A stretch of DNA of 27,915 nt from a virus. Lineage: Duplodnaviria; Heunggongvirae; Uroviricota; Caudoviricetes. Numbering within the stretch: the stretch's first letter is position 1; the number at the start of each line of letters is the position of its first letter. Shown here piece by piece: positions 24,001-27,915 of this stretch. Where the stretch lies: the IMG/VR virus record IMGVR_UViG_641736226_000038; one strand, 5' to 3'. The position numbers were made by a program.

Positions 24001-27000
24001 CACGGAATCCGGGGTCATACACCGCATGGCATTCAACAACGCTATGCCAGAAGTTACGCACTTCATGAACTCCAGCCAGCACTAATCCTTCGTAGATGCC
24101 GAGATATACCGCATCAGGCTTGATGTAGTATTTATCTCCACTGTCTACGATATTCCCCGTGTTTACCGGGTTGTTAAGGAATTCTGCAAGTTTCACCGGG
24201 TTATCGATGAGCTTTATTTCCATCACTGCTCCGCAATGATTTTGATGGTTGTGGCAGTAAACGCCGCGCCATTCGACTGAATGGTTAACGTGCTGCCATT
24301 TGTGGCAAGAAAGCCGTCTTTATCCACGCTGAAGAACGTAGCTAACAGGATGTTGTCGGTTGTTGTTGCCGAGTTGCGACTGCTTACTAGCGTGTCAGGA
24401 ACAGAACCGGAGAATGTTAGCTGCATTGACCTGTTGGCGGTTCCGCTGGGCCACGTCCCGACAATCGACAGCTTGAAGAACAAGGTTTTGTTCTCGTTGA
24501 ACACAACCATCTTGTTGTTAACGGTGTCGAAGAATGGTGCCAACGTCCCGGATGACGGCGTAAGCGTTTTCAGCAGGCTAACAAGGTTGGTCGGCGCTGT
24601 CGGGATGGTTACTGATACGCCAGAGTAAACAACCTCTGACTTCTTGCGCGTAGTGGCATACTCCAGAGCATTAATGCGCGTTTCATGGTCTGAAACCTGC
24701 GATTCCAGCGACTGAACTCTGGTATCAAGCGATGCAATATCGCTTTCATTCAAGGCAATCAGTGGGTTTACGTCATGGAGTGGGCTCAACACCAGTCAGA
24801 GCCGCATGTACACGCAATAATCATGGTGAACGAAAGAAGCATTAATGGGCAAGCTGGCAAAATTGTCAGCAAATGGGTAACACTGGCAAACAATGCAATC
24901 CCATCAAATGTTCCTCCCCAGTGGGATCTAGATTTGAAAGGTCAGCAATATTCAGAGCCTACAAAGTGTATAGGTAAACAGATTGATTACATGGCAAAGC
25001 CCGAAACTAAGTTAAATGACTTTAATAGAGAGGCGAGCAAGAGCCTATATGATTGGTCAGATGCCAACGTTTGGGGTTATTCGAATGGCTGGGCGCGGCA
25101 TGAGATAAAAAAAGAAACACTTTCTATCACTGGCTTTCATGCTGTAAGACGCATACTAAAAGCCGTTCAGGCATCAAGGAAAGACAACTACAAAGCTAAG
25201 CGACAGATACAGCGTACATTGAAACGACAAGACATAAATCGATCACCAATCACCCCGTTCCAAGCACCGTTAATTAGCAAACACGATTGGGATTTATCAG
25301 TGATAGCGGTCACCAAAGAGGCAGAGACAGAGCGCAGGGAATTACTATCCTCACAGATAATAAACTCGAACAAAGTACAAACCCACCCACTGTTAAGGAT
25401 GTTAAGAAGAGCACGAGTGAGAGCATCCAGAGCCAAAAGAGAAAGCGGAGGTTATGACCATTACTACTAGTAGTGACAGATCGTGACAAGGCGGTGCAAA
25501 AAACGACCAATAATAAGAGAGATATGCCTGCCAAACCGCCAAAAGCGCGGAGCGCGGCAAACGCCGCGAGAGGCGCAAGAAGGCGAACCTATCCATTGAA
25601 ACGGTCAGAAGCGCATCGCGCTCGACGACCGAAGTCCCCACTAACACCGTTAACGAAAGATCAAAGTCTTAGAAAAAAATGACGTTTCTTTGATGGACTT
25701 CCATCCGTAAAAATCAAATTTTGAGAAAAAGTACTTATAGAAATTAATCGCTCTATAAGGATAAGTTGACGTTAGTTTAAAGTGATAAAACATTAAAGAA
25801 AAAACGTAAAATCAAATACATAAAATAAGTCACCAAGGGATCATTTTCAGAAAACAACGTCAACGTAACGTCAACTCTGTAAGAACTTTTTTGGTCACTT
25901 TTTGGGTTGAATGTACGTAAAAATCCCCAGCAGTGAAATTTGAGCGCGTAAGCACAATTCTGAGGGGCTTTTTGTCTGTAGGTTAGGCAGTGTAACTAAC
26001 AATACAAGAAGTTAGCTCTGACTAACTATTTAATTAACTTTTCAATCTAATTGCGTTAGATATTATACCCTAACGCAATATTTTTAATTCAATAATGTCT
26101 GTAAATTGTTATTACTTATAATTATACATTTAACTATATCTACATTGGCTGCTTCCAATTACTACTTACGTAACGGAATCTCGGATCCTCTGTTTTTGGC
26201 TCGGTATAATAAGAATCATCAATAGTAAAGTTCGACGCTAATTTATCCCGAAGCCCACCTAAACGTTCAATGCTTGTTAGTTCGTTAGTAACATCCTTGA
26301 AAACGGTAGAAAATGCTTTATGTTGTTTAGACTTCATAAATTCAGGAGTGCTCAGTGCAAACTCTTTATCAGGCAAACCTGGAATACCCACGAGTCCTGT
26401 CAATGAATTTATACATTTTATCAAAAAACTGCCTTGAATACCTTGATTTGATGGAACACCGTAGCTTCGTTTAATATCTCCAGATATTTTATCTAAATCA
26501 CTTAGTAATTTTGTTACTTTTTTATTTCCTGCACTTATCCCCGATTCATCGTAGGTCACATGAATCTCTCGGATTACATCTCGACACGTACGAAAATGAT
26601 CATGTGTTCTAAGCTCTAAAGCTGAATTGATAACTTGAGAGACATTTCCTGTTTCGTTTGCTAGCCATGCAGAAAATATTGGTAAATCTAATGAAATAGT
26701 AGATGTGCGTCCATGATCTACAATTTCAGATCTTGCAGTACTGATTTTATCAGACAACGATTGCACCAACCTTGCAGTATAATCATGACCAAAAGCACCT
26801 GTTTTTTTCATCCAATGCAATTGATATGCATGCCTTATTGGATGAATAAATGAGTCTGCTTTAAAATGCTTAGCAATGACGCTGTAATAAATAGATTTAT
26901 ATGCCAACCAATTTAGCGATGCGATAAACATTTCAAGTGAACGAGTCATACCTCCTTTACCGCGAGTAGATTTTTCCCTTTCTAGTTCAAATTCACGCTC

Positions 27001-27915
27001 AGTATATTCATGTCCAGATGAACTCACTAGCTTCACATCGGTTGACCAGTACCCTTTCGTATCAGAAGCATCTGATAATTCATTAAAAATCGATGCACTT
27101 AGTTCACTATATTTCGCATATTCAGGAGTACCGGGCTGACCAAGCATTTTCATTGTTAAGTAATACACGCTAGACCGAAGATCCCATGTGCAAATCATAT
27201 TCAGCTTAAGCATCTCTACAAGTTGCCTAAAATCATCGTCAACAAACTCCCCACCTCTAATTTCGGAAGTAATTTGCCGAGATTCAACTTGTGCTAACTG
27301 ATCAAGTTCACTGAGTTGAAAATCACTTTCAGATACAAATTTAATAAAGTCAAATTTAGCAATGCGTTTATCTCTATATTCTTTTTTATAATTATCTACA
27401 CAGATCAGGGTATCGTAAAAAAGTATCGCTTGAATAAGATTTTCAAAAGCGACTAAATCTCCGTTAATAGTATCTGGATTCTTAACAAGAATATCACCCA
27501 GTGTTCTTTCGACTGCTGTTAACGAAGCATTATCAATCAACGCATAAGACATTAAACTACCTCCATTAGATAATATCTAATAACATTATATTTCAATTAG
27601 GTTTAAAAATTGTGATACTTATGACAGATTTGAGTGACATTTTATCAATCTACTGATTTTGATGGTGAAATTTATTAGAAGGTATGCGTAGTGCTACGGG
27701 AGAAATGAGAAACGCGCCCAGCAATGGCGCATCCTTTCTTAAGCAAGTTGGCTAGTATCTATAGCATCCATCCAATCAGGAGCAATTCCCAAACGTTCCG
27801 CGAACTCTTCATTGGTCACGTCTTCCATTGAGAGACTAGCCAGACAATCGTTAATTTCAGAATAGACGGGGGAAAGTAATAGGTATTCCCGCAACTCTTT
27901 CAGGTCTTTTTCCAT

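Follow-up and report, generated by a model that had tools for sequence, protein, structure and literature searches.

The DNA analysed here (the window; 27,915 nucleotides, IMG/VR record IMGVR_UViG_641736226_000038) is the argW region of Escherichia coli O157:H7, and near its end it carries ECs3238, a gene for a 470-amino-acid (aa) protein annotated as hypothetical. ECs3238 was found to be intact, conserved, free of a partner gene, of a family mobile as integron cassettes, and interchangeable in one genomic slot with genes of immune type. On this basis it could be proposed that ECs3238 encodes an autonomous single-gene protein directed against phages or mobile elements, a reading that in our judgement has an even chance of being correct. 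An earlier note on the same DNA, made from the sequence alone, had already named the gene as candidate defence cargo. Its setting in a cargo slot turned out to be better supported than that note could know, while the operator-like palindrome and the related flanking repeats on which the note had also drawn are within chance.

The final 2.5 kb of the window were 100% identical to the chromosome in 316 of 5,426 complete E. coli genomes, the matches listed being O157:H7 and O55:H7 strains. In strain Sakai, the 470-aa open reading frame (ORF) lies within a feature labelled "prophage Sp16; P22-like phage", near tRNA-Arg(CCT) argW (Table 1). The replication-protein gene to its left was present in 539 of the 5,426 genomes, and homologues of the 58-aa ORF to its right were found in about 200 genomes without ECs3238. 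The flanks in these genomes are 90-94% identical to the window up to positions 25977-26011 and again from 27673-27708 onward. These breaks of homology delimit an O157-specific segment of approximately 26012-27672, which contains the gene with its own untranslated flanks and nearly equals the unit that is shared with Dickeya (26037-27593). Where the element is intact, its order is a tyrosine integrase, small helix-turn-helix (HTH) or other DNA-binding proteins, a rolling-circle replication protein, the cargo, the 58-aa ORF and a serine recombinase. O157 lacks the left half of the element, and the remainder is joined to a P22-like remnant at about position 24752. The element is not annotated as such, and its remnant in the window continues beyond it (locus L001, 22340-23963; also L053, L055 and L056). 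In Sakai, the window end is followed by the serine recombinase ECs3240, a DUF4942 fragment and the csc sucrose genes.

Presence and absence across strains with the same flanks, a comparison that the earlier note had called for, revealed a hotspot with at least four alternative cargos in one slot. Besides ECs3238 (316 genomes), the slot was occupied by a pair of genes for 330-aa and 821-aa proteins (148 genomes), by a gene for an 826-aa SIR2 protein (7 genomes), or by an IS4 element together with a 395-aa protein annotated as HNH endonuclease (11 genomes); about 57 of the 539 genomes held cargo outside these four types. All cargos are AT-rich, with a guanine-plus-cytosine (GC) content of 0.32-0.39. 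The slot thus combines conserved flanks with differing cargo, and the alternative cargos include recognised immune types. DefensePredictor Table S10 gives the 330-aa protein as a "predicted novel defense gene" (mean log-odds 7.16), its 821-aa partner being unassigned. The SIR2 protein showed full-length homology to PDB entry 9jap (E = 9e-163) and also matched the defence NADases ThsA and KomC through its SIR2 domain. No description of this particular cargo slot was found in the literature. The 330-aa and 821-aa pair is located at 8495-11949 of locus L053 (E. coli NMBU-W10C18) and is the same in L054; it gave no match in PDB, and the 821-aa protein has several hydrophobic segments near its N-terminus.

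Sequence searches with ECs3238 gave no match in Pfam, NCBIfam, PADLOC or PDB, in agreement with the statement of the earlier note that the protein belongs to no recognisable family, which holds also for folds in PDB and BFVD (see below). The sole family match, over the full length, was phrog_13435, to which no function is assigned and which seems to be derived from the O157 prophage call itself. None of 90 diverse members of the family matched any Pfam or PADLOC family consistently: in PADLOC-DB v2.0.0 ECs3238 matched 0 families, and the other 89 members gave scattered single matches at E >= 0.005. Comparison with PDB by single sequence, by full-length profile and by a profile of the N-terminal domain returned coiled-coil noise only. 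The family is undescribed: its members are "hypothetical" everywhere, it is included neither in Pfam (2025) nor in NCBIfam (2026) or PADLOC (2023), and a literature search by accession found WP_000119352 in no paper. Its transcript level varies with the growth condition according to a microarray study of Sakai, which reports ECs3238 up 11.8-fold in spinach root exudate (PMC4940412).

The family is large nonetheless. Close homologues with 54-85% identity numbered 233 and were found in Dickeya, Vibrio, Salmonella, Shewanella, Pseudomonas, Aeromonas, Undibacterium, Chromobacterium, betaproteobacteria and many metagenomes. A profile search of 1.8 billion representatives returned 315 clusters at 50% identity, and the full-length clusters are almost all 455-478 aa long. 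A plasmid of Clostridium kluyveri carries a copy with 34% identity. Among 109 diverse members P238, R240, P291 and R324 are invariant, and about 19 residues are conserved in at least 90%, including D7, R16, G19, D32, E37, D47 and D53 (the five acidic residues at 92-99% each) as well as Y55, R63, W123, S128, W215, Y223 and G432. Conservation extends to the last residues, and the C-terminal part contains a conserved WKxPM. Such conserved residues together with the constant length indicate a functional protein under purifying selection. A cut-down copy, equivalent to residues 132-470 and with 60% identity, was observed on P. aeruginosa megaplasmids of about 0.5 Mb (L052, 8007-9008), where it adjoins the resistance genes mph(E), msr(E) and armA and insertion sequence (IS) elements.

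Outside E. coli, the gene is frequently carried as an integron cassette. The copy of Vibrio vulnificus is located in the superintegron and that of Stutzerimonas comes second among the cassettes behind intI; both copies have attC-type sites on each side, with the ORF alone inside the cassette. The signature of such a one-gene cassette, i.e. GTTATAR 21-33 nt before the ATG, YTATAAC just past the stop codon and a terminal GCGTTAT, was found in 11 non-redundant loci out of approximately 26 (L003, L007, L011-L013, L018, L020, L025, L029/30, L032 and L033). Further cassette hosts are Alteromonas, Shewanella, Halioxenophilus, Nitrosomonas, Ectothiorhodospira, Geobacter, Syntrophales and others, and some Pseudomonas copies retain the upstream core only. 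The copy in the window has no upstream core with a downstream attC pair and no intI neighbour, the integrases in the window being of phage type only; like those of Dickeya and Salmonella, the E. coli copy no longer has its attC sites. Since the signature is present in the relatives and absent from the window copy, the E. coli copy descends from a cassette family and is itself no cassette. The hairpin downstream of ECs3238 was considered as a relic of attC and rejected, its cores being in the wrong order.

A comparison of 36 loci revealed no neighbour family common to more than five of them, and these five are close relatives from Pseudomonas. A conserved partner gene could therefore be ruled out, and it follows from the absence of a conserved neighbour that genes of the ECs3238 family work on their own. 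Nor was a conserved adjacent antitoxin gene, as in a type II toxin-antitoxin module, present in these loci, and the cassettes hold a single ORF. Outside integrons, defence genes are often found near the family gene: a complete Hachiman pair (HamA/HamB) directly upstream in Pseudomonas, AbiGi together with BrxC/D-TerB-helicase genes in a Salmonella island, AbiTii and a PIN_8 protein in P. fluorescens, and LmuB-like and TOTE/PrimPol proteins at other loci. In Aeromonas hydrophila (L047, 9001-10356) a family member is inserted alone some 100 bp past recD, in the orientation of recBCD, a placement that recurs in many Aeromonas assemblies.

For structural comparison, 40 close sequences yielded a poor AlphaFold 2 model (predicted local distance difference test, pLDDT, 59.5), whereas 109 diverse sequences yielded a confident one with a pLDDT of 84.3 and a predicted template-modelling score of 0.88. 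A Foldseek search with the latter gave nothing significant in PDB or BFVD, and as modelled, ECs3238 as a whole is without a structural relative among solved structures. The top BFVD match was a phage "RNaseH ribonuclease" at a non-significant E value of 0.07, which we assume to be the T4-type enzyme and hence a PIN/FEN-like 5' nuclease. Residues 1-118 of the model form a Rossmann-like alpha/beta domain with a weak resemblance to PIN, the best structural matches of this domain being VapC-type PIN ribonucleases (e.g. PDB 1w8i, 7by2 and 6a7v). The conserved acidic residues are placed at strand ends and on helix 2, with D7 where strand 1 ends and E37 in the next helix. At the sequence level, ECs3238 matched no PIN family at E <= 10, nor did the 90 diverse members at E <= 0.1, and the N-terminal-domain profile retrieved no PIN protein from PDB. 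Alignment by hhalign to a VapC profile gave probabilities of 0.5% and 0.2%, in a test that is weak because this profile is narrow (at least 80% identity). The PIN resemblance, which is based on the fold matches and the placement of D7 and E37, is kept as hypothetical, and a nuclease-type mechanism is a doubtful suggestion.

With this in mind, a possible mode of action can be outlined. ECs3238 would stay silent until infection, one protein serving as both sensor and effector. In the N-terminal domain the near-invariant acidic cluster (D7, D32, E37, D47, D53), together with the invariant R240 and R324, could form a metal-dependent site for cleaving or processing nucleic acid or nucleotides, much as PIN/FEN-type nucleases do. 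The helical remainder of the protein may hold this site auto-inhibited, and its activation would halt phage replication, possibly at the expense of the cell. If all of this is put together, ECs3238 might represent a new single-polypeptide immune family with an unmatched fold, combining the sensing of infection with a new metal-dependent site that degrades nucleic acids or nucleotides. Such a family would have spread over the Proteobacteria and into the Firmicutes, mainly as a larger integron cassette, would be fixed in E. coli only in the O157:H7/O55:H7 lineage and could shape the phage sensitivity of this lineage, including that to Stx phages. In this full form the proposal is tentative, and we regard it as clearly less probable than the general defence role.

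Several observations weigh against a role in defence, for which the support is contextual throughout. Integron cassettes carry many functions other than defence. The family gene also stands alone in settings that are clearly no defence islands, i.e. after recD in Aeromonas, by an ars operon in Dickeya and by a two-component system in Undibacterium, so that several of its contexts are ordinary chromosomal ones. No PADLOC model fits any of the 90 family members. Around ECs3238 itself, the palindrome and the related repeats are within chance and the 58-aa ORF is not a partner. WP_000119352 is not among the entries of DefensePredictor Table S10 down to a log-odds of 4.54, and is thus either not highly ranked there or not sampled.

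Three other explanations have to be considered next to an immune function. ECs3238 could have nothing to do with immunity and be an accessory enzyme or a binding protein, such as a HUP/USP-like protein that binds nucleotides or is linked to stress, which was spread by cassettes for an environmental benefit. We find this unlikely: no HUP signature motif is present, the 90 members gave no Pfam or NCBIfam match, and the patchy, horizontally transferred distribution fits poorly. Moreover, alternation in one slot with SIR2, HNH and predicted defence genes, as well as adjacency to Hachiman and Abi genes, is typical of conflict genes and not of metabolic ones. The constant association with mobile DNA could also point to a weapon or addiction module of the mobile elements themselves, either as a toxin-like stabiliser of the cassette or island or as an excluder of plasmids, satellites or prophages. 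The gene is always on or by such DNA, be it an integron, an integrative element that carries a serine recombinase and a gene for rolling-circle replication, a phage-plasmid-like replicon in Clostridium or a megaplasmid in Pseudomonas, and in Undibacterium it adjoins a VapBC toxin-antitoxin pair. This explanation is somewhat less likely still, as there is no antitoxin-like partner, the cassettes contain one ORF, the 58-aa ORF belongs to the element backbone and no neighbour is conserved. A free-standing toxin of 470 aa must furthermore be self-inhibited, by which the explanation merges into that of an autonomous defence protein.

That ECs3238 serves the life cycle of the P22-like Sp16 element, as a prophage or satellite gene, is suggested by its annotation inside Sp16 in Sakai and by the full-length match to phrog_13435. 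A tblastn search, however, found no copy in 50,697 phage genomes, and the only IMG/VR matches are the O157 prophage calls themselves, at 100% identity, so that ECs3238 is not a phage gene in any useful sense. In addition, the gene is situated beyond the deletion joint, in the DNA of a different small element, and its relatives are mostly integron cassettes. This origin is therefore highly improbable, and an autonomous defence protein is preferred over all three explanations.

The features in and around ECs3238 are listed in Table 1. The earlier note had reported a sharp drop of GC content at 25683-27915, and with 0.353 against 0.478 in the rest of the window this segment is indeed the lowest of all 2.2-kb windows; its bounds were set too wide, the strain-specific part being narrower. 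The 470-aa ORF was confirmed, as were the nearby tRNA and two integrases and the strong ribosome-binding site, a GGAGG 7 nt before the ATG which is also present in the Dickeya and Salmonella copies. An operator-like palindrome had been noted at the gene start, but for TTAGATAATATCTAA 0.47 occurrences are expected in composition-matched sequence (P = 0.38), and the closest relatives, from Dickeya and Salmonella, do not retain it. Past the 3' end, the reported inverted repeat stood as a hairpin that is probably real (P ~0.04). In Dickeya it recurs at the equivalent position behind the gene, within the shared unit of 1,557 bp, and it is likely a transcript-end or stability element travelling with the gene. 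Its supposed relation to the 5' palindrome does not stand out: the best inverted alignment between the flanks had P = 0.18, and Dickeya and Salmonella show no counterpart. The idea that ECs3238 lies in a transposable unit with inverted repeats at its ends was rejected on the same grounds. As to the small upstream ORF, the hairpin that separates it from ECs3238 could be found again. The ORF does not run off the window: it is complete at 58 aa, with its ATG as the last three bases of the window. Since it forms part of the element backbone under every cargo, it is not a partner of ECs3238.

Table 1. Coordinates of features in the window and in the ECs3238 region
Feature	Position	Strand	Details
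BsuBI/PstI-type restriction endonuclease gene	285-1238	+	on lambdoid prophage
RecT gene	3467-4486		on lambdoid prophage
IS66-family element	15998-18331	-	complete; in lambdoid prophage
Lambdoid prophage integrase	19010-20254
tRNA-Arg(CCT) argW	20375-20449
intS	after argW, before P22-type remnants
Remnants of P22-type ejection and needle genes	between intS and replication gene
378-aa chimeric ORF	21943-23079	-
Conserved left backbone	24752-26011	+	replication gene and non-coding stretch; comparison of E. coli genomes
"Replication protein" gene, rolling-circle, ECs3236	24775-25470	+	annotation
69-aa ORF	25473-25682	+	directly after replication gene
GTTGACGT/ACGTCAAC repeats	25764-25783, 25857-25876		hairpin at 25859-25875
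Strain-specific cargo	26012-27672		GC ~0.34; gene with own 5' and 3' untranslated flanks; homology breaks
3' hairpin	26050-26079		10-bp perfect arms, 10-nt loop, 61 nt past stop codon
470-aa coding sequence, ECs3238 / WP_000119352.1	26140-27552	-	annotated hypothetical; ORF call
GGAGG ribosome-binding site	27560-27564	-
15-nt palindrome	27566-27580		between TATAAT-like hexamer and ribosome-binding site; within chance
Conserved right-hand backbone, portion in window	27673-27915
Terminator-like hairpin	27710-27734	-	9-bp stem, weak T tract; after 58-aa ORF; part of conserved right backbone
58-aa ORF, ECs3239 / WP_000409798.1	27739-27915	-	ORF call and annotation

Some further observations were made on the window and its counterparts. 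The conserved non-coding stretch downstream of the replication gene contains inverted and direct GTTGACGT/ACGTCAAC repeats, which may be the origin or a recombination site of the element. The 69-aa ORF directly after the replication gene is very rich in Lys, Arg and Ala, has a local GC content of 0.51 and matches no family; it may not be a gene. Within the Sp16 remnant, the first 217 residues of the 378-aa chimeric ORF are those of the P22 injectosome translocase (Inj_translocase) and the C-terminal part comes from the end of an O-antigen acetyltransferase (Acyl_transf_3), which makes the ORF a deletion joint. The IS66-family element of the lambdoid prophage has three ORFs (HTH_Tnp_1, TnpB_IS66 and DDE_Tnp_IS66) and a GC content of about 0.6, and is missing at the corresponding place in strain TR01. 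The upstream part of this prophage differs from that of TR01, for example in having RecT instead of Bet. Damage to the ECs3238 locus occurs occasionally: in E. coli MA11, IS1203 is inserted within the 2.5-kb region, and in the O55:H7 strain DEC5B the first 434 bases of a 26000-27700 query, i.e. the 3' part of ECs3238, are missing.

A protective effect of ECs3238 against phages would mean that a compact immune family of one gene, new and with an unmatched fold, is common among environmental integrons and has become fixed in an important lineage of food-borne pathogens. ECs3238 also provides a worked example of integron cassettes and island hotspots drawing on one pool of defence genes. The slot can in addition be mined for other systems, both in the genomes with other cargo and in those with the 330-aa and 821-aa pair. 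Should no immune role be found, it is still a conserved mobile family that deserves a Pfam entry. Thousands of comparable defence candidates exist; among them ECs3238 stands out by its unmatched fold, its very wide distribution, the clean comparison within the same slot and the fact that it is fixed in the O157:H7 lineage. What ECs3238 appears to be, namely compact defence cargo in a hotspot of a mobile element or in an integron, is of a well-known kind; the family itself is undescribed.

Among known systems, a close parallel is DS-3 (working name PIN8; WP_022645725.1), a single-protein anti-phage system of E. coli without antitoxin that was reported with DefensePredictor (Science 2026; PMC13092281). 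DS-3 is proposed to be auto-inhibited, with D7 and E42 as catalytic acids, and the changes D7A and E42A abolish defence (PMC13092281). The near-invariant D7 and E37 of ECs3238 are placed by the model at the equivalent strand-1 end and helix. However, DS-3 is a PIN_8 protein of 340 aa and stands outside the ECs3238 family. VapC-type PIN ribonucleases likewise share with the modelled ECs3238 an Asp at the end of strand 1 (hydrophobic-Asp-Asn) and a Glu on the next long helix. They differ from it in that profile-profile probabilities are below 1%, ECs3238 has no cognate antitoxin and possesses 350 more residues of unmatched fold, and the third and fourth catalytic acids could not be placed.

The SIR2 defence NADases (ThsA of Thoeris, KomC; PDB 9jap) have no similarity to ECs3238 in sequence or fold, and their likeness is that of a positional analogue only, as in seven E. 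coli genomes a SIR2 protein fills this very slot in the same orientation. Hotspots of defence genes are known from prophages, satellites and integrative elements (Hochhauser et al. 2023, PMC10121019; Rousset et al. 2022, as cited in PMC10121019), and the ECs3238 slot resembles these in that conserved backbone genes flank a short, AT-rich, strain-variable segment with different immune genes; its backbone, unlike theirs, is neither P2 nor P4. For the defence cassettes of integrons (Darracq et al. 2024/2025; Kieffer et al. 2025; Getz et al. 2025; 10.64898/2026.03.17.712381), no described system matches ECs3238 when compared by description, and the cassette of the ECs3238 family is large, at about 1.5 kb. 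What these cassettes have in common with the ECs3238 family is the layout of one gene bounded by attC sites, found in Vibrio and other sedentary integrons, and the fact that models of the DefenseFinder/PADLOC type miss the family, as they do most of the systems described there.

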